Source: Aulosira sp. ZfuVER01 (lineage in GTDB: Bacteria > Cyanobacteriota > Cyanobacteriia > Cyanobacteriales > Nostocaceae). Taken from it: a DNA stretch of 64,000 nt. The first letter of the stretch is position 1. Every line of letters starts with the position of its first letter. The notes beneath the pieces are model-generated. The model saw only the letters and a list, made by a program, of their open reading frames with translations, did no database searches and was not told where the DNA came from. Below, piece after piece: positions 4,979-26,714 of the stretch. The DNA is taken from assembly GCA_034530615.2 (NCBI GenBank), contig JAVRCV020000033.1, positions 92,128-156,127 of the forward strand, in the 5' to 3' direction. The position numbers and the translations under genes are program-made.

Positions 4979-5815
4979 CTAAAGCCTCCCAGTTAGTCCT
5001 TTGTAGATCATTTCCAGGGCTAGCACCAGAATGACACCACTAAAAATATTTCGTAAAAGTGTGACTTTAGCTCCAATCAATAACCGCGCCCCTAACACAG
5101 CACCAAACAGAACTCCTAACATTACTGGCATTGTTAATCCGGGATCGATGTAACCTCGATTAAGGTAAATTCCAGCACTAGCCGCAGCCGTTACTCCAAT
5201 CATGAAATTGCTAGTAGTTGTAGAAACTTTGAATGGGATATGCATAACTCGATCCATTGCCAGTACCTTGAGCGCGCCCGAGCCAATGCCCAGCAAGCCA
5301 GAAAGTACACCAGCAGTAAACATTAATCCAAACCCCAAAGGAACACCACGCACGTTGTAAGACTCTTCTCCCGCTTGAGTTGGATATGTACTATTGAGCT
5401 TCAAGCGCGTTGCTAGCGGATCTGGTGGTAAATTATCTATGTTTTCGGAACTTTGCTGACGAGATAAGTAGGCGCTATAAAGTAAAACAATTCCAAACAC
5501 AACAGCAATTGTTCCTGTAGAAATCTTCGCTGCTACCATTGCTCCAGCTATTGCACCAAATGTTGTTGCCACTTCTAAGAACATCCCTAGCCGCAAATTA
5601 GTGTAGCCTTCCTTTACGTAAGCGGATGCTGCTCCACTAGATGTAGCAATTACAGATACTAAAGAAGCACCGATAGCATAATGAATATCCACTCCACAAA
5701 CTACAGATAAAAAAGGAACAATTACTACCCCGCCGCCTAAACCTGTCAAAGCTCCTAAAAACCCAGCAACTAAGGAGCCAAACCATACTAATAGCGAAAA
5801 ATCTAGAATATTCAA
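4979..5815 (-). CDS. TauE/SafE (TSUP) family transporter
   Basis: GALTGLGGG, SGLLGIGSG and STTTSNFMIG motifs; TTG start. Confidence 0.88.
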   Translation of the reverse strand: MNILDFSLLVWFGSLVAGFLGALTGLGGGVVIVPFLSVVCGVDIHYAIGASLVSVIATSSGAASAYVKEGYTNLRLGMFLEVATTFGAIAGAMVAAKISTGTIAVVFGIVLLYSAYLSRQQSSENIDNLPPDPLATRLKLNSTYPTQAGEESYNVRGVPLGFGLMFTAGVLSGLLGIGSGALKVLAMDRVMHIPFKVSTTTSNFMIGVTAAASAGIYLNRGYIDPGLTMPVMLGVLFGAVLGARLLIGAKVTLLRNIFSGVILVLALEMIYKGLTGRL

Positions 5816-6094
5816 GGTTAATTCTCCATTATTGGGCTTTATACTTGAAACACAGATTATCTTGTTAGTTATGAGTTGAGCTTACTTTAGACTTGCTCAT
5901 TAATCAAAGCAAACACTCTTTATTATCAGAATAATAACAATTTAATAATATTGCATATTTAGTTATTCTAAAACTTCTGAGATTAAATCTATTATTTTAC
6001 ACATATTCTATGCCACTTTTTTCAATTTTATACAAGTCATTTAACTACTATAGTTTTATCAATTTACAGTAGTTCATTAAACAAGACTTCATGC

Positions 6095-6146
6095 CATAAC
6101 CTGGTTATAACCCTGTGATAAACACCCTCTAACTTGTGTGTATTTT
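6095..6146 (+). promoter_or_regulatory. 11-bp-periodic Pho-box-like repeats with possible extended -10
   Basis: ATAACC(6096) ATAACC(6107) ATAAAC(6118) CTAACT(6129), then TGTG-TATTTT at 6137-6146. Confidence 0.4.
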
Positions 6147-6269
6147 CTAAACATTTAATTATTAAGAACTGTCATACTTTATTCATGAAAATGACAAGTG
6201 ATTATCAAATACTTTTAATATTCTAGATAAAGTGAATGTTGTAGGCTTGTACAGTAAATCAAAAAAATT

Positions 6270-6650
6270 ATGGATAACACTTTACTTTGCCTAATTTTAG
6301 GCTTGATAGCAGGAATAGTAAGTGGAATCACCGGAATTGGTGGGGGTATAATTATTTTACCCGCCTTAATTTTTGTATTTGGTTTTTCTCAACACCAAGC
6401 TCAGGGAACTACATTAGCTTTACTTGTTCCTCCTATTGATATCTTGGCTGCATGGACTTATTACAAACAAGGTTATGTAGACATTAAGATAGCAACATTG
6501 CTTTGTATAGGTTTTGTATTAGGTGGGTGGTTTGGAGCAAAAATAGGAACGGGATTATCTAATGTAATTTTGGCGAGGATTTTTGGAGTCTTATTACTGG
6601 TAAGTGCTATCAGAGTCATGTTTATAAATCCAGGCGATGCTAATTTATGA
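6270..6650 (+). CDS. Short TauE/SafE family permease
   Basis: SGITGIGGG and HQAQGTTLALLVPP motifs. Confidence 0.85.
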   Translation: MDNTLLCLILGLIAGIVSGITGIGGGIIILPALIFVFGFSQHQAQGTTLALLVPPIDILAAWTYYKQGYVDIKIATLLCIGFVLGGWFGAKIGTGLSNVILARIFGVLLLVSAIRVMFINPGDANL

Positions 6651-6664
6651 TTTATTTCTTATAT

Positions 6665-8032
6665 TCAACAGCTTTCGCTATTATCTTGGGGAATCTTTAC
6701 TGTGAAAATTGTTCCAATACCTACCTCACTTTTTACATAAATTTCTCCCTGATGTAGTTCAACACATTTTTTCACCACAGCTAATCCTAGTCCAGTACCA
6801 ACAATTTTGCCCACATTTTCTGCTCGATGAAAAGGCTCAAATAAATGTTTCTGAAATTCCTCCGGAATTCCTAGACCAAAATCTTTAACTTGGAAAATTA
6901 TTGAGTTTGGTTCACCACTGAGAATTAACAATATATCTGCCTCTTCTGGCGAATATTTTATGGCATTAGAAAGCAAATTACTAAGAATTGAGTACAGCAA
7001 ATTTTCATCTAAAGTTGCGTGAGTACAGTTATTTTGACTGATAAATTTAATTGGGTGTTGTGGTTGATTACAAAACTGAATATCTTCAATTAAGTTTAGA
7101 CAAAATGCTTCCAAATCTATAATATCTGGATGAAATTCAAGTTTACCAGCTTCTGCCCTAGTTAGAGTCAGAATATCTGTCAGCAATTGGTTCATTGATC
7201 TAGCTGAAGATTGAATCCGATATAGATTTTTGACTTTCTTTTCTTCTGTCCACTGCTGATTACTCTGAGCTAACAATTGAGCCGAACCTAAAATAATACT
7301 TAAAGGTGTGCGAAATTCATGGGAAACCATCGAAAAAAAGCGCAGTTTCAGTTCGCTGAGTTCTTTTTCTTGAGCTAATGTCCGTTGCAAAGCTTCTGCT
7401 TGCTGGCGCTTAACCAATTGTTGATAAAGCAAGGCGTAAACAGCCAACAAAATAGCAAAACTCAGCACCGTACCCAGGAATTCAATCAACATCCGGTTGT
7501 GAATATTTTCCTGAGAATGTTTAACCGAAATTTCTAATAACTCTTCTTCTCTCACTTGCAACTGAGCTAGAGTTTGCCGAATTTCACCACGAGTTTGGTT
7601 AATTTTCGTAGCTTGCAGAGCAACTGTTGATTTGCCTAATTGCTGAAGGTTAAGCGACTCTTGAGAAAATTCCACTCTTTGAAAAATTAAGGCTTTTAGT
7701 TTTATGAGTTGCTGCTGTTGAGAGGGGTCATCAGCAAGTTGTTTTTGTAACTTTTTGACTTTGGCATTTAAGCTTTGTATTGCCTGATTGTAACGTTCTA
7801 ATTCCGATCGCTCTCCAAATAGAATATAGCCTCTACGTCCTGCTTCGGCATCAGTCAAGGTAGCGAAGATATCAATCAGGCTTTTCATTGCCTCATGTGT
7901 GTGCTTCACTTTATTGCTACTTTCAATTAACTGAGTAGCATTTTGGTAAGAAATAAAACTAACTATACCCATTAATAAGAAAGATAAACCAAAACCAGAG
8001 GCAATCCATTTCTTTTCCAATGACCATTTCAT
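6665..8032 (-). CDS. CHASE3-domain sensor histidine kinase
   Basis: TM-CHASE3 (DAEAGRRGY)-TM, H-box SHEFRTPL, NLLSNAIKY, DFGLGIP, GTGLGL. Confidence 0.93.
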   Translation of the reverse strand: MKWSLEKKWIASGFGLSFLLMGIVSFISYQNATQLIESSNKVKHTHEAMKSLIDIFATLTDAEAGRRGYILFGERSELERYNQAIQSLNAKVKKLQKQLADDPSQQQQLIKLKALIFQRVEFSQESLNLQQLGKSTVALQATKINQTRGEIRQTLAQLQVREEELLEISVKHSQENIHNRMLIEFLGTVLSFAILLAVYALLYQQLVKRQQAEALQRTLAQEKELSELKLRFFSMVSHEFRTPLSIILGSAQLLAQSNQQWTEEKKVKNLYRIQSSARSMNQLLTDILTLTRAEAGKLEFHPDIIDLEAFCLNLIEDIQFCNQPQHPIKFISQNNCTHATLDENLLYSILSNLLSNAIKYSPEEADILLILSGEPNSIIFQVKDFGLGIPEEFQKHLFEPFHRAENVGKIVGTGLGLAVVKKCVELHQGEIYVKSEVGIGTIFTVKIPQDNSESC

Positions 8033-8049
8033 AAGACTACCTTTAAATT

Positions 8050-8102
8050 CCCCGATTTTTACCCGATATTTACCCCTTATCTCTACAAGTTATTGTTAAA
8101 AT
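8050..8102 (+). promoter_or_regulatory. Box 1: triple 11-bp direct repeat plus -10 (TAAAAT 8097-8102)
   Basis: ccccgattttt acccgatattt accccttatct, 14 nt, then taaaat. Confidence 0.8.
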
Positions 8103-8108
8103 AATAAT

Positions 8109-8180
8109 TGAATTAACCTCTTTTACACTATACATTCTTCAAACTATTTTAATTACTTAGTTTGAAGAATTTTAATTTTT
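8109..8180 (+). ncRNA. Candidate small RNA, copy 1 (5' end estimated)
   Basis: No ORF follows box 1. A CU-rich 5' segment precedes a perfect 13-bp stem (8134-8146/8158-8170) and T-tract. Paralogous to 13537-13607. Confidence 0.55.
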
Positions 8181-8469
8181 ATATATCTCAACTACAAAGC
8201 TTATTATACTATTCAGATTTGATTCATCAACTTACTGATTTGATGCGCTACGGCTAGTACAAGCACGCTAGGTAAGCGGTAAATGCGTTACTGCGTTAAG
8301 CGAACCTTGAAGTAAGTGACTGTCGTTAAGGTTAGCGAAGCAGTAGCAACTTTGTGGAATTCTCTTGTTCGCTCTTGGCGTTATTTGAGGATAGAGTAAT
8401 ACAGTTATAGAATATTACAGTTTGTAATGTTTTTTTAAATCCCGTGTCTTTAATAGCTATTCAAAAATT

Positions 8470-8522
8470 ACCCGATTTCTACCCGATTTCTACCCGATTT
8501 TTTGACATATAAGGTGTAAAGT
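8470..8522 (+). promoter_or_regulatory. Box 2: triple 11-bp direct repeat plus -10 (TAAAGT 8517-8522)
   Basis: acccgatttct acccgatttct acccgattttt, 14 nt, then taaagt. Confidence 0.85.
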
Positions 8523-8573
8523 TCAAAATAGAGAAAAACTCATAAGACGATTGATTTTTTTTGTTACACTTAT

Positions 8574-8798
8574 ATGTCTAATTTTTCAGTTAATATTGCT
8601 AACATTGTACTGACTAATGAACAGTATTATAAGCTCAAATTTTATGCAAACAGTCATCATGTATCGCTTCAAAAATCAATTATATTGCTTATTGATTCTC
8701 TGCCTAGACCTTCTAAAAATAGTAAAATTTTAAAAAATAGATATTCAATGTTATCTGCTAGAAACTTTCTGCAAAGGTTTGATAATATTCAAAATTAG
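8574..8798 (+). CDS. 74-aa microprotein, RHH/CopG-like (paralog A)
   Basis: 30/47 N-terminal identities with 14024-14245; strand-helix-helix pattern; stop lies 2 nt before the PBP ATG. Confidence 0.75.
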   Translation: MSNFSVNIANIVLTNEQYYKLKFYANSHHVSLQKSIILLIDSLPRPSKNSKILKNRYSMLSARNFLQRFDNIQN

Positions 8799-8800
8799 CT

Positions 8801-10618
8801 ATGCATAAGTTTCCTAGGAGAACAAAATCTAAAATTTCTCATAATACTTTATTCAAAAAGCAGCAAAGTTTTAGACAATATATAAATAATAGGCTTGCTA
8901 CTAATACCAAAAATCAAATATCTAACACTAGAAACAGATTATTTGTAGTTTGGTGCATATTAATGTTGGCTGGGTTAAGAATAGGTATTAATTTGTATCA
9001 ATTGCAAATTGTGCAGGGAGCAAAGCTCACGAAGAAAGCTAGAGAACAGCAAATGGTAACTTTGCGGCCTTTTACACCTCGACGAATGGTTGTAGATCGC
9101 AACGATCGTGTCTTAGCTCTTGACAGGATTGTGTATACTCTATACGCCCATCCTCAACTGTTTCAAAAAAAACCAGAAGACGTAGCACAACACCTAGCTG
9201 TAATACTTAACAAAAATGCTGATGAATTAGTCAAAATATTTCAAGGAAAAAAAAGTGGCATTTTACTTGATGCTGCTGTGCCAGAAGAAATTGCGACTCA
9301 GATATTTGCATTGCATCTTGATGGCTTAGAACTAACTCAAAAATATTTGCGATTTTATCCAGAAGCAGATTTAACCGCAGATGTAGTGGGTTACATCAAT
9401 ACAGAACGTCAAGGTCAAGCTGGTGTGGAATACAGCCAAGAAAATTTACTAGCGCGTTCTGCACAAACTGTAAGACTCAGGCGACAAGGAAACGGAGCAT
9501 TGCTACCAGATGATGCACCAACAGGATTTCTCAATATTGATGACTTGCGATTACAACTAACAATTGATAGCCGCATTCAACGGATAGCGCGAGCTGCACT
9601 TAAACAGCAAGTAGAAAAGTTTAGGGCGAAACGCGGAGCCGTAATTGTGATGGATGCGTTGGATGGTTCGTTGCTCGCTTTAGTCTCTGTGCCCAGTTAT
9701 AACCCTAATGAATATTCTAAAGCTGATATTTCGCTATTTAAAAATTGGACAATAGCAGATCTGTATGAACCAGGATCGACTTTCAAACCTTTAAATGTGG
9801 CGATCGCATTGGAGACTGGTGTAATTAAACCAGACGATATGTTTGACGATCCTGGTTTTATCAGAGTGGGCGATCGCACCATTAAAAATGCCGAGCAAAA
9901 CAGCGATCGCACGATCGATATTGCTCAAATTTTACAACACTCCAGCAATGTTGGCATGGTGAAAATTATGCAGCGATTGCCAACTTCAATCTATTACCAA
10001 TGGCTACAACGCTTAGGGCTGGGGCAAACTATCCATACAGATTTGCCATTTGCGGTTAGTAGTCAGCTCAAAAGTCAAGAAAAATTTATGGCTTCACCCA
10101 TTGAGAAGGCGACAGCTTCCTTTGGGCAAGGCTTTTCCCTCACAGCACTACAGCTAGTGCAATTGAACGGCGCTTTAGCTAACGGGGGCAAATTAGTGAC
10201 ACCTCATGTAATTAAAGGATTGATTGATAGCCAAGGACAGATGCATTATTCACCCACTCTCCCAACACCACGCCAAATTTTCTCACGCATGACAACTCAA
10301 CAGGTAATTAAAATGATGGAAACTGTAGTAGAACAAGGAACTGGCAAAGCATCAAAGATTTCCGGTTATCGTATAGCTGGTAAAACTGGTACAGCGCAAA
10401 AAGCCAATTCTAGTGGTGGTTATCAAAAAGGCGCTTATATCACCAGTTTCTTGGGTATATTGCCAGCAGAATCTCCTCATTATGTAGTTTTAGCACTGGT
10501 AGATGAAGCGCAAGGAGCAAATGCTTACGGTGGTACGGTTGCCGCACCAATTGTTAAATCTTTAATCAACGCACTGATTCCCCTAGAGCAGATTCCGCCA
10601 AGCCAAGGAGCCAAATAA
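8801..10618 (+). CDS. ftsI: Class B penicillin-binding protein, FtsI/PBP3-like
   Basis: N-terminal TM, RFYP, GQAGVE, SxxK (GSTFK), SxN (SSN), KTGT. Confidence 0.88.
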   Translation: MHKFPRRTKSKISHNTLFKKQQSFRQYINNRLATNTKNQISNTRNRLFVVWCILMLAGLRIGINLYQLQIVQGAKLTKKAREQQMVTLRPFTPRRMVVDRNDRVLALDRIVYTLYAHPQLFQKKPEDVAQHLAVILNKNADELVKIFQGKKSGILLDAAVPEEIATQIFALHLDGLELTQKYLRFYPEADLTADVVGYINTERQGQAGVEYSQENLLARSAQTVRLRRQGNGALLPDDAPTGFLNIDDLRLQLTIDSRIQRIARAALKQQVEKFRAKRGAVIVMDALDGSLLALVSVPSYNPNEYSKADISLFKNWTIADLYEPGSTFKPLNVAIALETGVIKPDDMFDDPGFIRVGDRTIKNAEQNSDRTIDIAQILQHSSNVGMVKIMQRLPTSIYYQWLQRLGLGQTIHTDLPFAVSSQLKSQEKFMASPIEKATASFGQGFSLTALQLVQLNGALANGGKLVTPHVIKGLIDSQGQMHYSPTLPTPRQIFSRMTTQQVIKMMETVVEQGTGKASKISGYRIAGKTGTAQKANSSGGYQKGAYITSFLGILPAESPHYVVLALVDEAQGANAYGGTVAAPIVKSLINALIPLEQIPPSQGAK

Positions 10619-10826
10619 ATATCTGACATTAGGAATATTGCTTTGGCGATCGCTCTTAATTTACCCTAAAACTTAGGGTGCTAAATTATTTTGTAACGCA
10701 ACTACCAACAATAGGGAAATTAGAATTTTTCAGAACTAATTCCTGAATTCAATTATTTATAAATCAACTTGGTATTCTCCAAGATTTTATTTGAGTTAAA
10801 CTTACAAGTGAGGAAGTGAAATTACC

Positions 10827-12752
10827 GTGTCTTCATCTAAAACTTTTGATAAGAAACCATCACAAATTCAAACTTTACCCAGTACTGAATTTTGGAAAGA
10901 AGTTGGTCAAGTAACTGGTGGTACTCTCCTATCAATTATGTTGTTATCAACTGCTGTGATATCTGGAGGATTAGTTGGTTTAGCCATTAGTTTCCGGGAT
11001 TTACCAGATGTTAGACAGTTACGAAACTTTTTTCCCGCAGAAACAACTTATATATATGATATTAAAGGCAAGCTGTTAGCACGCATACACGGTGAAGCTA
11101 ATCGGCAAGTAGTACCTTTAGATGGAATTTCTCCCAATTTAAAACGAGCTGTATTAGCTAGCGAAGACAGTAATTTCTTCGAGCATCACGGTATTAATCC
11201 CGTTGGGATTGGACGTGCTGCAATAACTAACTTCGTAGCTGGAGGTGTACGAGAAGGTGGTTCGACAATCACCATGCAGTTGGTGAAAAATCTGTTTTTA
11301 TCCCAGAAGCGTGCTGTTACCCGGAAAATTGCAGAAGCAATATTAGCAATTAGGTTAGAGCAAGTTCTGACTAAAGACCAAATTTTAGAAATGTACCTCA
11401 ACCAAGTTTACTGGGGACACAATAATTATGGTGTACAAACGGCAGCACGCACTTACTTTAACAAATCAGCTGCAAATTTGACTTTGGCTGAATCTGCAAT
11501 GATGGCGGGATTAATTCCAGCCCCAGAAGAATATAGCCCATTTGTAAACATGAAATTGGCTAAACAAAGACAAAAAGAAGTACTGGGGCGGATGTTGGAA
11601 TTAAATTGGATTAGCCAGCAAGAATATAATGATGCTCTCAAACAACAAATCAAACTAGGTAAAATTAAATCATTTCAAGGTAGTGCTTTGCCTTATGTTA
11701 CCAATACCGTAGCTCAGGAAATAATTAAAAAGTTTGGGCGTGAAGCCTTGCTCAAAGCCGGAATGCGGGTACAAACTACAGTAGACACCAACTTCCAATT
11801 GATGGCAGAACAAACTATTAAGAAATGGCATCAAACCCTTGAAAGTGAAGGGATATATAAAAATCAAATGGCTTTAGTAGCTATCGATCCGCGCACGCAT
11901 TTTGTCAAAGCACTAGTTGGTGGTATTGATGCCAAAAAGAGCGAATTTAACCGCGCCACTCAAGCACAGCGTCAGCCTGGATCTTCTTTCAAGCCATTTG
12001 TCTACTATACTGCTTTTGCCAGTGGTAAATTCACACCCAATTCAACAATACTAGATACCCCAGTTAGTTATCGAGATGGTAGCGGTTGGTATTATCCACG
12101 CAACTATGATAATAGCTTTATGGGCGCAATATCGATTCGTACTGCCGTTGCTCTGTCTCGTAATATTCCAGCAATCAAAATTGGCAAAGCTGTAGGCATG
12201 AATAAAGTCATTGAAACTTGCCGTACCCTAGGAATTATGAGTCCAATGGTTCCGGTAAGTTCTCTGCCATTGGGGGCAATTGGTGTGACACCACTGGAAA
12301 TGGCTAGTGCTTATGCAACTTTTGCTAATTATGGTTGGCAATCACCAGCGACGATTATTGCCCGTGTGACAGATAGTAGTGGTAATGTGTTGCTAGATAA
12401 TACTCCAAAACCGCAACTAGTTCTTGACCCTTGGGCATCAGCAGCAACTTTAGATGTGATGCAATCGGTAGTGAATGAAGGAACTGGTAAAGGTGCAGCT
12501 ATCGGCCGTCCAGTCGCCGGAAAAACCGGTACAACTTCCTCAGAAAAGGATATTTGGTTTATTGGCACTGTACCGCAGTTAACGACTGCTATCTGGGTAG
12601 GGAGGGACGACAACCGACAATTAGCTCACAGCGCAACAGGTGGTGGTACTGTGGCTCCTGTCTGGCGTGATTTTATGCAGAAGGCACTCGAGGATGTACC
12701 AGTAGAAAGATTTCAGCCACCTTCTAAGTTTTCTCGTCCTAAAGCAGATTGA
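10827..12752 (+). CDS. Class A penicillin-binding protein 1A family (transglycosylase/transpeptidase)
   Basis: EDSNFFEHHG, GGSTITMQLVKN, RKIAE, GSSFK, SRN and KTGT motifs. Confidence 0.93.
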   Translation: MSSSKTFDKKPSQIQTLPSTEFWKEVGQVTGGTLLSIMLLSTAVISGGLVGLAISFRDLPDVRQLRNFFPAETTYIYDIKGKLLARIHGEANRQVVPLDGISPNLKRAVLASEDSNFFEHHGINPVGIGRAAITNFVAGGVREGGSTITMQLVKNLFLSQKRAVTRKIAEAILAIRLEQVLTKDQILEMYLNQVYWGHNNYGVQTAARTYFNKSAANLTLAESAMMAGLIPAPEEYSPFVNMKLAKQRQKEVLGRMLELNWISQQEYNDALKQQIKLGKIKSFQGSALPYVTNTVAQEIIKKFGREALLKAGMRVQTTVDTNFQLMAEQTIKKWHQTLESEGIYKNQMALVAIDPRTHFVKALVGGIDAKKSEFNRATQAQRQPGSSFKPFVYYTAFASGKFTPNSTILDTPVSYRDGSGWYYPRNYDNSFMGAISIRTAVALSRNIPAIKIGKAVGMNKVIETCRTLGIMSPMVPVSSLPLGAIGVTPLEMASAYATFANYGWQSPATIIARVTDSSGNVLLDNTPKPQLVLDPWASAATLDVMQSVVNEGTGKGAAIGRPVAGKTGTTSSEKDIWFIGTVPQLTTAIWVGRDDNRQLAHSATGGGTVAPVWRDFMQKALEDVPVERFQPPSKFSRPKAD

Positions 12753-12793
12753 AAATATTAAGGTGAGATTAGGTATCAATAAATATTTGAGAA

Positions 12794-13471
12794 ATGAGGA
12801 TTTTGGTAGTTGAAGATGATGTCCAACTAGCAGAGATGCTAATGGAAGCCCTCACTGACCGTCAATATGTGGTGGATGTAGCCCAAGACGGTGAAGAAGC
12901 ATGGGATTTTATCAAGAGCTTGGAATATGACTTAGTGGTGCTAGACATAACCTTACCTAAATTAGACGGTGTTAGTTTTTGTCAACGCTTGCGATCGCAT
13001 CACCGGAGTCTGCCTGTCCTCATGTTAACAGCACGCGATACCCTGGCTGACAAAGTTACTGGCTTAGATGCAGGCGCAGATGACTATATGGTGAAACCTT
13101 TTGAAATGCCAGAACTGATGGCTCGCATTCGCGCACTGTTGCGCCGCAATCAAAGCACAGCCTCTTTTCCTGACCTCAGTTGGGGCGAGCTACATTTAAA
13201 TTCCAGCACTTATGAAGTCACCTATGCAGAACATCCCTTACATCTGACACCAAAAGAATTTGCCCTTCTAGAACTTATGGTTTCTAGCGGTCGGCGGGTA
13301 CTCAGTCGCACTGGAATTATTGAGCGCATCTGGTCACTTAATGACCCACCCAGCGAAGAAACGGTGAAATCTCACATTAAGAGTCTCAGAAATAAACTCC
13401 GAGAAGCAGGCGCTCCTGATGATTTTATTGAAACAGTGCATGGACTGGGCTATCGTTTAAAGCAGCTTTAG
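12794..13471 (+). CDS. OmpR/PhoB-family response regulator
   Basis: REC (VVEDD, LDITLP, KPF) plus winged helix (LTPKEF, ETVHGLGY). Confidence 0.95.
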   Translation: MRILVVEDDVQLAEMLMEALTDRQYVVDVAQDGEEAWDFIKSLEYDLVVLDITLPKLDGVSFCQRLRSHHRSLPVLMLTARDTLADKVTGLDAGADDYMVKPFEMPELMARIRALLRRNQSTASFPDLSWGELHLNSSTYEVTYAEHPLHLTPKEFALLELMVSSGRRVLSRTGIIERIWSLNDPPSEETVKSHIKSLRNKLREAGAPDDFIETVHGLGYRLKQL

Positions 13472-13477
13472 AGAACT

Positions 13478-13530
13478 ACCCGATTTCTACCCGATATTTA
13501 CCCGTTAGCTCCACAATTAATTGTTAAAGT
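13478..13530 (+). promoter_or_regulatory. Box 3: triple 11-bp direct repeat plus -10 (TAAAGT 13525-13530)
   Basis: acccgatttct acccgatattt acccgttagct, 14 nt, then taaagt. Confidence 0.82.
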
Positions 13531-13536
13531 TCTACA

Positions 13537-13607
13537 AAGAATAACTCCTTTGGAACACCACAATTTCTCCAAACATCTTAATTATTTCGTTTGGAGATTT
13601 TAATTAT
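13537..13607 (+). ncRNA. Candidate small RNA, copy 2 (5' end estimated)
   Basis: AACTCCTTT segment, stem tctccaaac/gtttggaga (13566-13574/13589-13597), TTAATTA loop and T-tract; paralog of copy 1. Confidence 0.55.
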
Positions 13608-13689
13608 TAATAAACAACGCTGAATTATTTAGTGACGGGAAAATCCTTAGTTTTATCACTAACAAACTTAAGGGTACATCTACACAAAT

Positions 13690-13739
13690 AAAGTCCACCT
13701 ATCTTTGATATCGTTGGAAGGTAGGTGGACTTTGTTTTT
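13690..13739 (+). terminator. Strong hairpin / intrinsic terminator
   Basis: aaagtccacctatctt...aaggtaggtggacttt (16 bp, one G-U) followed by gttttt. Confidence 0.65.
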
Positions 13740-13919
13740 AAGATAGCGACTTTTATACTAAAATTTTAGATTTTTAATTTAGAATTTGAGATTAATAATT
13801 AGCTCATTTCAATGTTTGTTAACTCCTGAAATGCAATAGTTAACAGTCATCAGCCAATAGCAAAAATAAATATTTTTTCAAACTTAAATTTCATTTCTAA
13901 ATTATTGATTTTCATGAAT

Positions 13920-13972
13920 CACCGATTTTTACCCGATTAATACCCGATATTTTAACTTCTAGGGCGTAACAT
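13920..13972 (+). promoter_or_regulatory. Box 4: triple 11-bp direct repeat plus -10 (TAACAT 13967-13972)
   Basis: caccgattttt acccgattaat acccgatattt, 14 nt, then taacat. Confidence 0.8.
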
Positions 13973-14023
13973 CTCAGAAGACCCGCAATTTTGCAACATG
14001 GTTTCCATTTTGAGTAAATTCCT

Positions 14024-14245
14024 ATGTCGCAATTTTCAGTAAATATTGCCAATATCGTTCTCACTAGTGAGCAATATCTTAAGCTCAGAATTTATGCAGA
14101 AACTCGTCAGATATCAGTGCATGAGACGATTAGGTTACTTGTTGATTCTCTGCCAGTACCGTCCAGAGCTAGCAAAAAAATAGATAAAATCCATCCTTTT
14201 TTACTATCTAGAAAACTCCTGCAAACTTTTTTTAATGTTCAGTAA
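14024..14245 (+). CDS. 73-aa microprotein, RHH/CopG-like (paralog B)
   Basis: Paralog of 8574-8798. ATG lies 104 nt after the box start, exactly as for paralog A. Confidence 0.75.
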   Translation: MSQFSVNIANIVLTSEQYLKLRIYAETRQISVHETIRLLVDSLPVPSRASKKIDKIHPFLLSRKLLQTFFNVQ

Positions 14246-14307
14246 TTGAACTCTGAACGTCAACAGCTAATTACCAATCTTTGAATTTTGTAGGTAGGAA
14301 TTTGGCC

Positions 14308-14869
14308 ATGAATAATCTTGTTCCTCTAAGTTTAGTTGGATCTTTGGAAAATCCTATCCCAGAAACACATTCTCAACCCACTTATGCATTAATTTCAGTT
14401 CATGGAGATCCTACGGCTGAAATTGGTAAAGAAGGAGCAGGTGGACAAAATATCTACGTGCGGGAATTAGGATTAGCATTAGCAAAAAAGGGATGTGAGG
14501 TTGATATATGTGCATGGTACAACCGGGCTGTTAGTACCTCCAGGTAATCATCACGATCTAACAAGAGCTATTAGTAATTTGTTAGACAACCCTAATTTAA
14601 GGCAATTTTATGGTAATGCTGCATATAGTTGGGTTCAGTCTCATTTTAGCACTCAAGCAGTCACCAACCAAATTTACGAACTCTATCAATCACTAACGCT
14701 TTCTACGTTCGTCTAAGAAATAATTCAAACTCATAATGTAACGCCGAACTTAGAAAAGCAAATTCAAAATTTGTTGAAGTCAAAAGCTTTAAAGCCGAGC
14801 GAAATTAAAGCTCTAGAGAAATTAGTTGACTCCTTTTCTAATGGTACTGTGCAGTGGGTTAATAGTTAA
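14308..14869 (+). pseudogene. GT4 glycosyltransferase (sucrose-phosphate synthase-like) with large internal deletion, frameshift and probable nonsense
   Basis: N-terminal ISVHGDP...AGGQNIYVRELG joins out of frame to C-terminal TGLLVPP...QIYELY. The frame stays open 50 codons past TAA 14714-14716. Confidence 0.8.
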
Positions 14870-14978
14870 TTAAGAGAGAACGGGGAAATCCGCATAATTC
14901 AAATCAAATTTGCTGCCAGCTTATCTATATCGTTGCCTAGGTTGCTGAATTACAAACTTATCTGTATACATCTGTCTT

Positions 14979-15109
14979 GAAAAGTTTTGCGCCGGGAAAC
15001 CCGGACGCGCAACGCCAGTTGCTTTAAGTCGGGGAACCCGACGACAGTCGCTTCAAGTCGGCAAAGCCGCCCACAGCGCTGTCTCCCCAACGCACTGGCT
15101 CAACTTTTC
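14979..15109. repeat. Triply nested small dispersed repeats
   Basis: Outer IR gaaaagtt/aacttttc; a 45-nt element at 15012-15101 is interrupted by a homologous 45-nt element at 15041-15085. Confidence 0.75.
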
Positions 15110-15385
15110 GCTGCGTCCATCCTTTTCAATCAGCGGTTAATTATTTCTTGTTCTCACCAATGTAGAAAGTGCTATGTAACAGATCGTCTTGATGTTCATG
15201 AGGATTTATCATGCTGGAATTAATTTATGAAATTTTAAATAGCGAAGAATGCATTGATTTACGTCAATTTTTACACTAACTGCAACAACAAAATAAACAA
15301 TTTTGAATTGGAGAAATCCCTGTATTTTATCCAGATATGCAGATTTTTTATTATTATCAAACTTGCTAAAGTTAAGGAATTAAAG

Positions 15386-16156
15386 ATGAAACTACTTCTA
15401 GTGATTGACTTAGACAATACTCTGCTTGAAAAAGACCAAGGTACTACGGTTTTAAACCAAAGGTTAGCAGGATTCCGCAAGTATATCTATTTGCTCTATG
15501 TTACAGATAGCTCTTATACTTCTAGTCGTAAATTTATAGCAAAAGCAAAGCTCTTGAAACCAGATTACTTAATTGCTAGTTTAGGTACTGAGATTTATCA
15601 ACAGGGTTTGATTTTAGAACAGGATTGGGCACATTACATCTCAAAAGACTGGAATAGAGATACAGTTTGGGCAATTGCTAGCCAATCTTCGAGATTGAAA
15701 CTTCGCTCTAAAAGTGAACAAACTCGTTGGAAAATTAGCTTTAAGCTAGATACGGCTGCTGAACTTCATGTTATTGATGATTTGCAAGATTTATTAAACT
15801 TTGCGGGATTATCGGCTCAGGTTATTTTCAGTAATGGGCGCGATGTTGATATCGTACCCAAAAGCAGTAATAAAGGTAAAGCTACTGCATATCTGCAACA
15901 ACTGTTGCAAGTGGAACTAGAAGCAACTATTGTCTGTGGAGGTTCGGGAAATGACATTAGCCTATTTCAACTACCATCACCGGGAATTATTGTGAGTAAT
16001 GCTCAGACACAATTGCTTCAATGGCATTATAAGACGCATTTCCCTTGGCACTATTTAACTCATTACCCTCATGCTGCTGGTATTCTGGAAGGACTGGTTT
16101 ATTTTAATATTTTGCCATTCCCTAACAGCTGGCGATCGCAACCCATTTCCAATTAA
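15386..16156 (+). CDS. spp: Sucrose-phosphate phosphatase-like HAD-IIB hydrolase, possibly inactive
   Basis: DLDNTL, KPDYLIASLGTEIY and NKGKA are present, but YVTDSS replaces TGRS and CGGSGND replaces CGDSGND. Confidence 0.75.
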   Translation: MKLLLVIDLDNTLLEKDQGTTVLNQRLAGFRKYIYLLYVTDSSYTSSRKFIAKAKLLKPDYLIASLGTEIYQQGLILEQDWAHYISKDWNRDTVWAIASQSSRLKLRSKSEQTRWKISFKLDTAAELHVIDDLQDLLNFAGLSAQVIFSNGRDVDIVPKSSNKGKATAYLQQLLQVELEATIVCGGSGNDISLFQLPSPGIIVSNAQTQLLQWHYKTHFPWHYLTHYPHAAGILEGLVYFNILPFPNSWRSQPISN

Positions 16157-24618: not shown

Positions 24619-25350
24619 ATGCGGCTGATATTAGTTGAGGATGAAGCGGATTTAGGCGCAGCAATCAAAGAAGTCCTGAGTCATGAGGCGTATGTAGTTG
24701 ATTGGTTTTTAGATGGTACTCAAGCATGGCAATATCTAGAAACTGGCTGGACTGAGTACACCCTAGGGATTTTTGATTGGATGCTACCTGGAGTTTCCGG
24801 GGTAGAGTTGTGTAGATGGTTGCGATCGCGCCAATTAATTCTGCCTGTTTTGATGTTAACTGCAAAAGACCGCATGGAAGAGAAAATTATTGGTCTAGAT
24901 AGCGGTGCAGATGACTATTTAGTTAAACCATTTGATATGGCAGAACTACTAGCAAGATTAAGAGCATTACAACGCCGTGCTTCTTATGTAGGCACAACAT
25001 TTACACCCCAAATTCAACCCCGACGCTTACAAGTAGGTTGTCTGACTCTCAATTACATCACACATGAACTTACTCGTCATTATCCTAATGGGGAGAAGCA
25101 ATTATTATCTTTAACTGCCAAAGAATTCCAATTGTTGGAATATTTCATGCGGCATCCTAACCAAATTATCAGTCGCGATCGGATTATTAATCAACTTTGG
25201 GAAATTGGTGTAGAACCAGTTAGCAATGTAGTAGCTGCACAAATTCGCTTATTAAGACGCAAATTGGGAGAAGAAGACAGCGAATCTTTGATAGAAACTA
25301 TTTATGGTGTGGGCTATCGCCTCAATATTCATGCTGCTGATTTTTGTTAA
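24619..25350 (+). CDS. rppA: RppA/NrsR/CopR-like OmpR-family response regulator
   Basis: FDWMLPG, SNVVAAQIRLLRRKL and ETIYGVGY motifs. Confidence 0.88.
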   Translation: MRLILVEDEADLGAAIKEVLSHEAYVVDWFLDGTQAWQYLETGWTEYTLGIFDWMLPGVSGVELCRWLRSRQLILPVLMLTAKDRMEEKIIGLDSGADDYLVKPFDMAELLARLRALQRRASYVGTTFTPQIQPRRLQVGCLTLNYITHELTRHYPNGEKQLLSLTAKEFQLLEYFMRHPNQIISRDRIINQLWEIGVEPVSNVVAAQIRLLRRKLGEEDSESLIETIYGVGYRLNIHAADFC

Positions 25351-25385
25351 CTTGACAGCGACACTTGGAACAAGGTTATAAAAAT

Positions 25386-26714
25386 ATGCAACGCAATCCC
25401 ATTTTCCATCAGACTCGGTTGCGGCTAGCAGCTTGGTATACCCTCGTGATGGGTGGTATTTTAGGGTTATCTGGACTGGGCGTGTATAGTGTAGTTGCCC
25501 ATACCTACTATGAAACCATAGACCAGGGATTGCAATCAGTAGCAAAGGCATTACATCAAAGTATTGAACCTGCTTGGCAGCAACCTGGACATTTAGAGCA
25601 ACTTGCGAAAGAACTTTCCTTAGAATTATGTATAACTCAAACAAACTGTTTGCCGAAAACAACTCTTATTAAGCAACCAATCGCAGAGGCAGCTAATTCA
25701 GTTAATTACTATATACGCTTATTGGATAGTTCGGAAAAAATATTTGCTATTGCCGGTATGTCATTTGATAAGTTACCGATAACCTCACCATCAAAGCGTT
25801 GGCAAATCCTTAAAGATTTAGATGGCACTAGATATAGCCAAATTACTTTACCTCTATATACTCACAACCAGCTTTCGGGTTATTTACAAGTAGCGCGAAG
25901 CCTCACCGACTTAGACCAACATCTTACTTATTTAAGATTAACTTTATTGCTGGGATTGCCAATTTCCATGATTTTTGTTGGTTTGTCAAGTTGGTGGTTG
26001 GCAGGAAGGGCAATGCAACCTGTATATCATTCGTATCAACAAATGCAACAATTTACTGCTGATGCTGCCCATGAGTTCCGCACACCTTTAGCAGCAATGT
26101 ATTCTACTATTGAAGCTGCTATTAAGTTACAGCAAGAACCAAAATCAAATAGTGGAATTTTAGATGTACTCAAACGTCAGAATCGCCGCTTATCTCAATT
26201 AGTTGGAGATTTACTGCTATTAACAAGAATAGACCAAAAACAACTAACAGCAGAATATCAACCTTGCTGTTTAAATGATTTAATTAGTGACTTAATTGAG
26301 GAATTAGCGTTTTTAGCTGTAGAGACTCAGGTAAATCTATCTAAGCAGATGCAAGTTGCAAAAAAACTGTATGTGATGGGAAATGAAGAACAGCTTTATC
26401 GCCTAATTTCTAACTTAATTATGAATGCGATTCAAGCAACACCTAGTGGGGGAAAAGTTACAGTTTTTTTAGAAAATAGCGAGCATTACGCTATTATCAA
26501 AGTTCAAGATACTGGAATTGGCATTGCTGTTGAACATCAAGCGCGAATTTTCGATCGCTTCTATCGAGTCGATCGCGATCGCTCTCGCACCTCTGGCGGT
26601 TCGGGTTTGGGTTTAGCTATAGCTATGGCGATCGCTCAAGCACACAAAGGCAGTATTCACGTTCAAAGTCAACCTGGGCTAGGTAGCACATTTACAGTCC
26701 GGCTTCCTTTATAA
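25386..26714 (+). CDS. rppB: RppB/NrsS/CopS-like sensor histidine kinase
   Basis: TRLRLAAWY, QQFTADAAHEFRTP, FDRFYRVD and GGSGLGL motifs. Confidence 0.88.
   Translation: MQRNPIFHQTRLRLAAWYTLVMGGILGLSGLGVYSVVAHTYYETIDQGLQSVAKALHQSIEPAWQQPGHLEQLAKELSLELCITQTNCLPKTTLIKQPIAEAANSVNYYIRLLDSSEKIFAIAGMSFDKLPITSPSKRWQILKDLDGTRYSQITLPLYTHNQLSGYLQVARSLTDLDQHLTYLRLTLLLGLPISMIFVGLSSWWLAGRAMQPVYHSYQQMQQFTADAAHEFRTPLAAMYSTIEAAIKLQQEPKSNSGILDVLKRQNRRLSQLVGDLLLLTRIDQKQLTAEYQPCCLNDLISDLIEELAFLAVETQVNLSKQMQVAKKLYVMGNEEQLYRLISNLIMNAIQATPSGGKVTVFLENSEHYAIIKVQDTGIGIAVEHQARIFDRFYRVDRDRSRTSGGSGLGLAIAMAIAQAHKGSIHVQSQPGLGSTFTVRLPL

Follow-up and report, generated by a model that had tools for sequence, protein, structure and literature searches.

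A CHASE3 kinase, a CcaR-like regulator and triple-repeat promoters form an apparently undescribed cassette with exchangeable cargo in cyanobacteria

Introduction

In the CcaS/CcaR system, phosphorylated CcaR activates transcription via a direct-repeat G-box (PMC5737509, PMC8256508). The locus described here, at positions 6665..16156 of a 64,000-nucleotide stretch of Aulosira sp. ZfuVER01 DNA (assembly GCA_034530615.2, contig JAVRCV020000033.1, positions 92,128 to 156,127 of the forward strand; the whole stretch is termed the window), holds a CHASE3 membrane kinase, an OmpR-type regulator and four triple-repeat promoters, and is a conserved, apparently undescribed two-component cassette. Its mode of regulation is of a known sort, with a precisely defined predicted operator, cargo that changes between lineages and a putative family of small RNAs. 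It resembles CcaS/CcaR in its regulator, 63% identical to the CcaR which gene context identifies in the same genome, in a predicted operator of 11-bp period with a CCGATTT core placed immediately upstream of the -10 element, and in a compact local regulon. It differs in its sensor, a membrane CHASE3 kinase in which Pfam finds no GAF/bilin domain, in its box (ACCCGAT, against TTCCGAT/TTACGAT in the G-box) and in its cargo, which consists of wall, sucrose and ion genes plus small RNAs rather than phycobilisome linkers.

Two-component control of sps (encoding sucrose-phosphate synthase, SPS) and sus (encoding sucrose synthase, SuS) under salt or drying is known from OrrA and Dsp1-OrrA of Anabaena PCC 7120 and Nostoc flagelliforme (PMC9804601, PMC13131328, PMC6753628). 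Dsp1 is described there as a PAS-PAS kinase, unlike the CHASE3 kinase of the cassette, and identity with Dsp1-OrrA was considered and rejected. OrrA controls scattered housekeeping genes, whereas the cassette holds a paralogous sps of its own. OrrA is a regulator of the NarL type. EnvZ/OmpR, to which the small RNAs MicF and OmrA/OmrB belong, offers another parallel as an OmpR-family system, osmotic as is putatively the cassette, whose output joins duplicated small RNAs to envelope genes; however, sensor domain, operator and RNA family all differ, the cassette regulon is packed in one exchangeable unit, and porin targeting by the window RNAs was not supported when scanned. The TM-CHASE3-TM sensor is shared with the salt-responsive histidine kinases CfcA, KipF, RsfS and RsbK, the first three of which have a reported response to salt or ionic strength (PMC10950880), but RsfS and RsbK signal via PP2C phosphatases to sigma factors and the cassette kinase is paired with a DNA-binding OmpR regulator. 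No account of the cassette was found in literature searches that used no Nostoc punctiforme locus tags and reached neither subscription papers nor supplements; an earlier note, made from the window sequence, had likewise not recognised it as a described system.

Results

Four promoters in the window, all on the + strand, share a single architecture of three 11-bp repeats with the core ACCCGAT, 18 nt, and a TAnnnT element. These are A1 (8050..8102; boxes 8050-8078, -10 TAAAAT at 8097-8102), B1 (8470..8522; boxes 8470-8498, -10 TAAAGT at 8517-8522), A2 (13478..13530; boxes 13478-13506, -10 TAAAGT at 13525-13530) and B2 (13920..13972; boxes 13920-13948, -10 TAACAT at 13967-13972). As TAnnnT lies exactly 18 nt beyond the repeats, the third repeat covers the -35 position, and transcription is predicted to start at ~8109, 8529, 13537 and 13979. 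The box sites in general have direct repeats spaced by roughly one helical turn and set at a fixed distance from the -10 element: 80 of 87 have TAnnnT at exactly 18 nt, against 19 at the next-best spacer. The box pattern has five matches in the window and none in each of 100 shuffles; CCCGAT-N5-CCCG occurs seven times genome-wide, six of them within the locus, a genome-wide total not above that of other spacings (1-16). A weight matrix trained solely on the near relatives' loci and scanned over the 8-Mb genome scored the four window sites at 45.9-54.5, the next site at 12.1 and a reversed-genome control at 12.7. The four window promoters are the sole strong sites of the genome. Generic sigma-70 and terminator scans gave chance level only. 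At the cassette's far end, two relatives' loci (L037:697 and L023:1884) have an extra opposite-strand box promoter, in the former case facing a transglycosylase-associated gene (PF04226); no opposite-strand far-end site scored in the window before 16604.

Each B promoter begins 420 or 442 nt beyond the start of its A promoter, and the distance from box start to microprotein start codon is 104 nt in both cases. The earlier note took these regularities as one regulatory cassette present twice, which is borne out at the ends, where box A plus RNA (74% identity), box B plus leader (63%) and the microprotein gene (68%) are homologous, but not in the ~300-nt middle, which is unrelated (48% against 46% when shuffled).

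The cassette is widespread but patchy. Scanning 389 genomes of the family and 301 drawn from the order with the sensor half of the kinase gave matches in 90 of the former at E <= 1e-45, 50 of these at >= 68% identity, and in 13 of the latter. Named carriers include Nostoc, Calothrix, Tolypothrix, Fischerella, Pelatocladus and Goleter, and a Kovacikia megaplasmid holds kinase, regulator, boxes, SPS and an MscS-like gene. Within genera presence is uneven (9 of 14 genomes in the window's genus) and flanking genes differ. A two-box pattern proved over-strict (2/389 matches). In a comparison of 85 loci, one per locus set (38 near, 47 distant), the CHASE3 kinase/OmpR regulator pair and boxes occur together in 64, from several cyanobacterial families; boxes are present in 26 of the 47 distant loci and in all 38 near ones, the latter figure being partly circular because the matrix was trained on near loci, and such locus counts do not amount to a statistical test because kin are not independent. 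The conserved part of the cluster is kinase, regulator and boxes, its genes for penicillin-binding proteins (PBPs) being confined to near loci and absent from the 26 distant box-bearing ones. In its simplest form the cassette has kinase and regulator genes in divergent orientation, a box promoter directly past the regulator stop codon and often another past the kinase stop. The window form looks like a derivative in which a unit of box-RNA and box-microprotein was duplicated and PBP genes were inserted between kinase and regulator. Two other loci (L048, L061) have an ABC-2/HlyD exporter set between kinase and pbp1A.

The boxes very probably belong to the local regulator, because they co-vary with its recognition helix (EETVKSH). 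Where the helix has K, 56 of 59 regulators are accompanied by boxes, leaving three without; where it has R or T, none of 17 is, and these 17, from otherwise similar pairs, form one clade (support 100/99). Nine loci had no regulator inside the fetched stretch, and in all 33 near loci that include one a box follows it within 500 nt. In a blind check of 300 evenly drawn genomes, three of four box-pattern matches lay ~3 kb or less from a 62-64% identical regulator and a kinase, here of CHASE or PAS type, the fourth being a lone site in one of the same genomes. In five other near-complete genomes all six matches lay inside the cassette, one genome giving none. These distributions support a regulon local to the cassette, with four genomic sites in the window strain, and agree with the earlier prediction that the local pair controls the boxes; that the regulator binds the triple box and activates from it is highly likely. 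Were the boxes instead read by another regulator with the local pair as a passenger, CcaR would be a candidate, being present in the genome and sharing with them the CCGATTT core and 11-bp period of its G-box. However, the boxes track the clade and helix residue of the local regulator and sit directly past its stop codon, and the genome's own G-box scores under 12 by the cassette matrix, which leaves this alternative very little room. Related CHASE3 kinase-regulator pairs without boxes, most with an altered recognition helix, were seen at L094, L095, L099, L114, L116-L119 and L121-L131.

The regulator (12794..13471, +) is an OmpR-type protein with receiver and winged-helix domains (Pfam) and an intact catalytic Asp. 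Its nearest genomic paralog, at the 63% identity given above, lies among phycobilisome linker and cpeS/cpeT genes and adjoins the genome's best match (20/22) to the G-box printed in PMC8256508, a context which identifies it as CcaR. In a tree with one CcaR and three other paralogs, this context-defined CcaR is sister to the whole 57-row family of cassette regulators. Box B1 matches the printed G-box at 17/22 positions with the same period (range for the four sites 14-17/22), a match weak by itself given that 18 sites in the genome score 17 or higher. The kinship of the proteins and the likeness of the operators nevertheless agree, and suggest that the regulator resembles CcaR and the box its G-box; the earlier note was right on the OmpR class of the regulator and overlooked this kinship. 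With no GAF sensor and no phycobilisome gene among the identified cargo, the cassette is not a CcaSR member, yet by analogy it should work likewise. At L151:8295-10273 (contig C36 of the genome), where a CcaR-like regulator and a G-box stand beside phycobilisome linkers, no kinase open reading frame was found in the 18 kb read, CcaS not having been sought elsewhere.

The gene layout of the earlier note, with a CHASE3 kinase, an OmpR regulator and two intact PBP genes, is confirmed by Pfam and catalytic motifs. The 455-aa kinase (6665..8032, - strand) has CHASE3, HisKA and HATPase as its only Pfam domains, with transmembrane helices near residues 10 and 185 flanking CHASE3 ahead of HisKA and HATPase, and retains its His in the motif SHEFRTP. 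Box A1 starts 18 nt from the kinase start codon, so that the kinase promoter must overlap the boxes or the opposite-strand RNA, an overlap which could give negative feedback. Downstream of B1 on the + strand follow microprotein 1 (8574..8798), an FtsI/PBP3-type transpeptidase (8801..10618; Pfam), an extra PBP1A (10827..12752; TIGR02074, above cut-off) and the regulator, with successive gaps of 2, 208 and 41 nt, the second of which contains a hairpin that may be a terminator. Promoter A2 begins 7 nt past the regulator stop codon. The positive feedback proposed earlier would be lineage-specific, as compact loci (for example L062-L064, L029, L087) have no box upstream of the regulator. Co-transcription through to the regulator and autoregulation by the microproteins are somewhat less likely than not.

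Type-A promoters are followed by predicted small RNAs. RNA A1 (8109..8178, +, ~70 nt, ends deduced from sequence) would consist of an unpaired AACCUCU..ACACUA seed, a terminator-like hairpin and a U-tract, and RNA A2 (13537..13607, +, ~70 nt) of a AACUCCUUUGGAACACCACA seed and a terminator-like hairpin. A strong 20-bp hairpin followed by a T run (13686..13737, +), similar in sequence at the loci of 4/5 close relatives, is likely a second terminator insulating promoter B2. Among 144 distinct box promoters, 71 precede a terminator-like hairpin (within ~125 nt, under -7 kcal/mol, U-rich tail); in 55 of these cases the two seed parts, AAC(U/C)(C/U)CU then ACAC(C/U)A as loose patterns, are both present in unpaired sequence. 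Among near relatives the hairpin covaries (96% paired, four pairs changed on both sides, score reached in 0/500 shuffles; 25 sequences, relatedness uncontrolled), while distant lineages keep the seed next to a hairpin of another sequence; L107-L109 have three to four RNA units in tandem. A covariance model run over the genome returned the two known copies and no further ones, and the type-A RNAs have no Rfam match.

The seed recalls Yfr1 (RF01116), an RNA with an invariant ACUCCUCACAC and two stem-loops (PMC2190773) that is near-constitutive and controls wall genes (PMC6974561). Both are short RNAs with an unpaired seed, ACUCCU..ACAC(C)AC in Yfr1, ahead of a terminator. In the type-A RNAs, however, the invariant motif is split by 1-7 nt, the 5' stem is missing, a single hairpin remains, and expression would be placed behind regulator boxes. 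Unfiltered leaders resemble the core of the genome's Yfr1, a true copy of which is located elsewhere in the genome, more than they do shuffled cores (mean local score 13.5 against 10.5 +/- 0.9; 0/300 shuffles), also when the anti-Shine-Dalgarno (anti-SD) part is retained in the shuffles (2/300); promoters without a hairpin show no such likeness (8.4 against 8.8). Duplex scans for targets covered 5,849 crude gene calls. Yfr1 itself, serving as the control, ranked six of ten porin leaders in its top 4%, against one for A1 and none for A2. The top 100 of A2 and Yfr1 overlap by 18, within the 14-19 of anti-SD-only seeds, and there was no enrichment of a bipartite TGGTGT..SD motif (11, permutations giving up to 10). 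With neither porin leaders nor target overlap above controls, the idea of a porin-repressing Yfr1 paralog was dropped for this strain.

Action of the type-A RNAs in trans as small RNAs is nonetheless probable, in keeping with the earlier view of the short hairpin transcripts, given the conserved unpaired seed and covarying hairpin. They might instead be attenuated leaders or plain terminators, with the motif a DNA site or one bound by protein: several Nostoc loci have a type-A element directly before pbp1A and no second box, the copy past the regulator could simply terminate that operon, and target scans gave nothing beyond anti-SD pairing. Against this, the seed persists unpaired while the hairpin is replaced and recurs in tandem units, the kinase-side copy has no upstream transcript on its strand to terminate, and the likeness to the Yfr1 core exceeds the anti-SD part; we regard the leader or terminator alternative as a minority possibility. 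Box-driven leaders at L087 and L092 contain text similar to GTGAGGAG, which is complementary to the Yfr1 motif, and are possible Yfr1 targets or sponges. Two genes elsewhere in the genome (C51:41617-42666 and C60:52686-53549), whose products may be hopanoid-pathway enzymes, have bipartite TGTGGTGT..AGGAG leaders ranking high for Yfr1, A1 and A2.

The type-B promoters precede microproteins 1 (74 aa) and 2 (14024..14245, +, 73 aa), which are 53% identical. Two weak matches without a cassette (L030, L031) were left out. Among 23 aligned homologs, the box-to-start distance is 102-106 nt in 20. dN/dS is 0.37 for microprotein 1 (against L020) and 0.12 for microprotein 2. The family matches no Pfam family beyond weak hits of single members, and no PDB sequence. 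A monomer model has two helices with pLDDT > 90 and no strand, most of the 50 rows of a structural search are ribbon-helix-helix (RHH) proteins at Z of at most 4.6, and a language-model search led to a CopG cluster at 0.93 with RHH_1 on 10% of members. Each points weakly in the same direction, that of RHH-like proteins, as the earlier note had supposed. Autoregulation of the type-B promoters by these proteins is a guess by analogy.

Cargo varies with lineage. Counted as lower bounds, the stretches being truncated, the 38 near loci carry PBP1A in 28, SPS in 22, RHH in 21, a protein like sucrose-phosphate phosphatase (SPP) in 17, FtsI in 12, ClC in 11, SuS in four and MscS in two. The 26 distant box loci carry a P-type IIA-like ATPase in 12, SPS in five, MscS in four, RND and RHH in two each, ClC in one and PBP in none; the 21 box-less loci yielded one SPS and one ATPase. 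Wall synthesis is thus a real but lineage-specific output, and the earlier idea of a cell-envelope or beta-lactam module as the core of the system did not hold, ion pumps, ClC, MscS and SPS taking the place of PBPs in distant loci.

Both PBPs keep SxxK, SxN and KTG, and PBP1A also EDSxF; with dN/dS of 0.19 (FtsI) and 0.08 (PBP1A) they are judged to be intact and under purifying selection. The other genomic copy of FtsI is 69% identical, and the two other copies of PBP1A are 81-82% identical, the island PBP1A copies being split from these housekeeping copies by one branch (FastTree 0.98, one outgroup). If wall damage or beta-lactams were the signal, read through the same regulator and boxes, the spare PBPs would be the purpose of the cassette. 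Their frequency in near loci and their selection fit this, as do their continued linkage after rearrangement (for example downstream of spp in L064), the likeness of the RNA seed to a controller of wall genes, and the absence from the window strain's cassette of any other intact enzyme cargo with complete catalytic motifs. However, PBPs are absent from every distant box-bearing locus, they are regular paralogs of the housekeeping PBPs and remote from PBP2a-type models, and the sensor is CHASE3 rather than a penicillin-binding domain; such a signal is improbable. The pbp1A leader contains a GTGAGGAAGT site (10808-10821), in the top 3.4% for Yfr1 pairing, which one housekeeping pbp1A paralog shares.

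The sucrose genes behind B2 have decayed. The sps (14281..14867, +) is a pseudogene from which ~880 nt are absent at 14507/14510 relative to three relatives, so it was formerly intact, as proposed earlier. A multicopy repeat (14955..15110; 65 blast pieces in the genome) occupies the place of the relatives' STAS anti-anti-sigma gene, and sus is reduced to a gene-start remnant (15177..15301, +; ~2.4 kb deleted), where relative L021 has an intact 805-aa SuS (TIGR02470). Judged from these lesions the sucrose arm is dead in the window strain, which has another SPS, an SPP and two SuS genes elsewhere. The island sps is paralogous, with 50% identity to the other SPS, and the intact SPS of L021 matches TeSPS 6KIH at E 3.5e-127 and keeps 7/7 residues named for TeSPS (catalytic His/Glu, phosphate-binding Arg; PMC7264703), though it scores under the TIGR02472 cut-off. 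Identity as a glucosylsucrose synthase was considered and rejected. SPS linkage recurs in three families, the Kovacikia megaplasmid included. The SPP-like HAD protein (15389..16156, +) is an open frame and its L021 counterpart passes TIGR01485, but motif IV reads GGSGND instead of GDSGND, Gly replacing Asp in 15 of 16 island sequences. The first Asp of motif IV has a role in HAD phosphatases. The protein is probably weak or inactive, a degeneration that the earlier note overlooked.

Two TauE/SafE genes, one short, adjoin the cassette (4979-6650), and TauE genes lie inside some Nostoc versions (L044, L050, L053, L054, L060). A second OmpR regulator/kinase pair at 24619-26714 has no box of the ACCCGAT type.

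Discussion

Our results suggest a model for a salt or osmotic two-component cassette with a CcaR-like regulator, which is the best overall explanation and one we hold at somewhat better than even confidence. The CHASE3 kinase would sense salt or osmotic stress at the membrane and phosphorylate the CcaR-like regulator, which would then occupy the triple ACCCGAT boxes across the -35 position and switch on the cassette promoters alone. Type-B promoters would drive the protein cargo, RHH1-ftsI-pbp1A-regulator and RHH2-sps-(STAS-sus)-spp-like, and type-A promoters would yield the ~70-nt RNAs with a Yfr1-like anti-ribosome-binding seed. Cargo would be exchangeable among lineages (wall synthases, sucrose synthesis, ClC, MscS, P-type cation ATPases) around a theme of ion, water and turgor balance, the window strain being left with spare PBPs, two RHH proteins and two RNAs after loss of its sucrose arm.

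Salt or osmotic stress is favoured as the signal over beta-lactam or wall damage because of the cargo range and the reported salt sensing of CHASE3 kinases, and is, by a modest preference, our first choice, followed by a specific ion or membrane energy and then by wall damage. In the second of these, the kinase would respond to one cation in particular (Ca2+, Na+, Mg2+) or to the energy state of the membrane rather than to water stress, sucrose and wall genes having been recruited later. P-type IIA-like ATPases are indeed the commonest cargo of distant box loci, and the CHASE3 kinase RsfS reacts to ionic strength, to pH and to respiration, with hardly any reaction to osmolarity imposed by sucrose (PMC10950880). 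The cargo ATPases all fall below family cut-offs, however, and SPS linkage in three families and MscS in several lineages speak for a wider osmotic role, so that an ion-specific or energy signal is rather unlikely.

Several observations weigh against a salt or osmotic cassette, in addition to the partly circular near-locus count, the kinship among loci, the weak 17/22 operator match and the three box-less K-type regulators given above. The salt assignment rests on cargo and on CHASE3 kinases of other phyla, for which the sensing mechanism is itself unresolved. The commonest cargo of near relatives is PBP1A, not SPS, and several distant box loci include cargo without a clear osmotic role (peroxiredoxin-2OG oxygenase, RND, ABC importers). 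Most near-clade ClC genes face the kinase, with no box detected. The cassette would need a housekeeping SPP because the island SPP lacks the motif-IV Asp. In the target scan no target stood out, no cassette gene rising above the top 10% for A1 or A2.

A broader scenario, more speculative and in our estimate less probable than the cassette model itself, is that an ancestral CcaR-type regulator and operator formed a modular switch that was joined to bilin, CHASE3, CHASE and PAS sensors. In terrestrial and filamentous cyanobacteria the CHASE3 version would be a second salt sensor, one that does not depend on OrrA; an undescribed family of inducible Yfr1-like RNAs, among its most lasting outputs, would retune Yfr1-type envelope control in salt or drying stress, and wall, sucrose and ion genes would be swapped behind promoter copies.

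The cassette suggests a family of two-component-controlled small RNAs with a Yfr1-like seed and raises the question of cross-talk between its regulator and the G-box. With a non-light sensor on a CcaR-like regulator, synthetic biologists could gain a chemical way of driving the widely used design built on the CcaR promoter. The step from salt sensing to sucrose synthesis in cyanobacteria has been called largely unresolved (PMC6753628), and this question becomes directly testable because kinase, regulator, precise operator and predicted starts all come with the cassette; the model strain Nostoc punctiforme PCC 73102 has an ortholog of the kinase (ACC81549.1).

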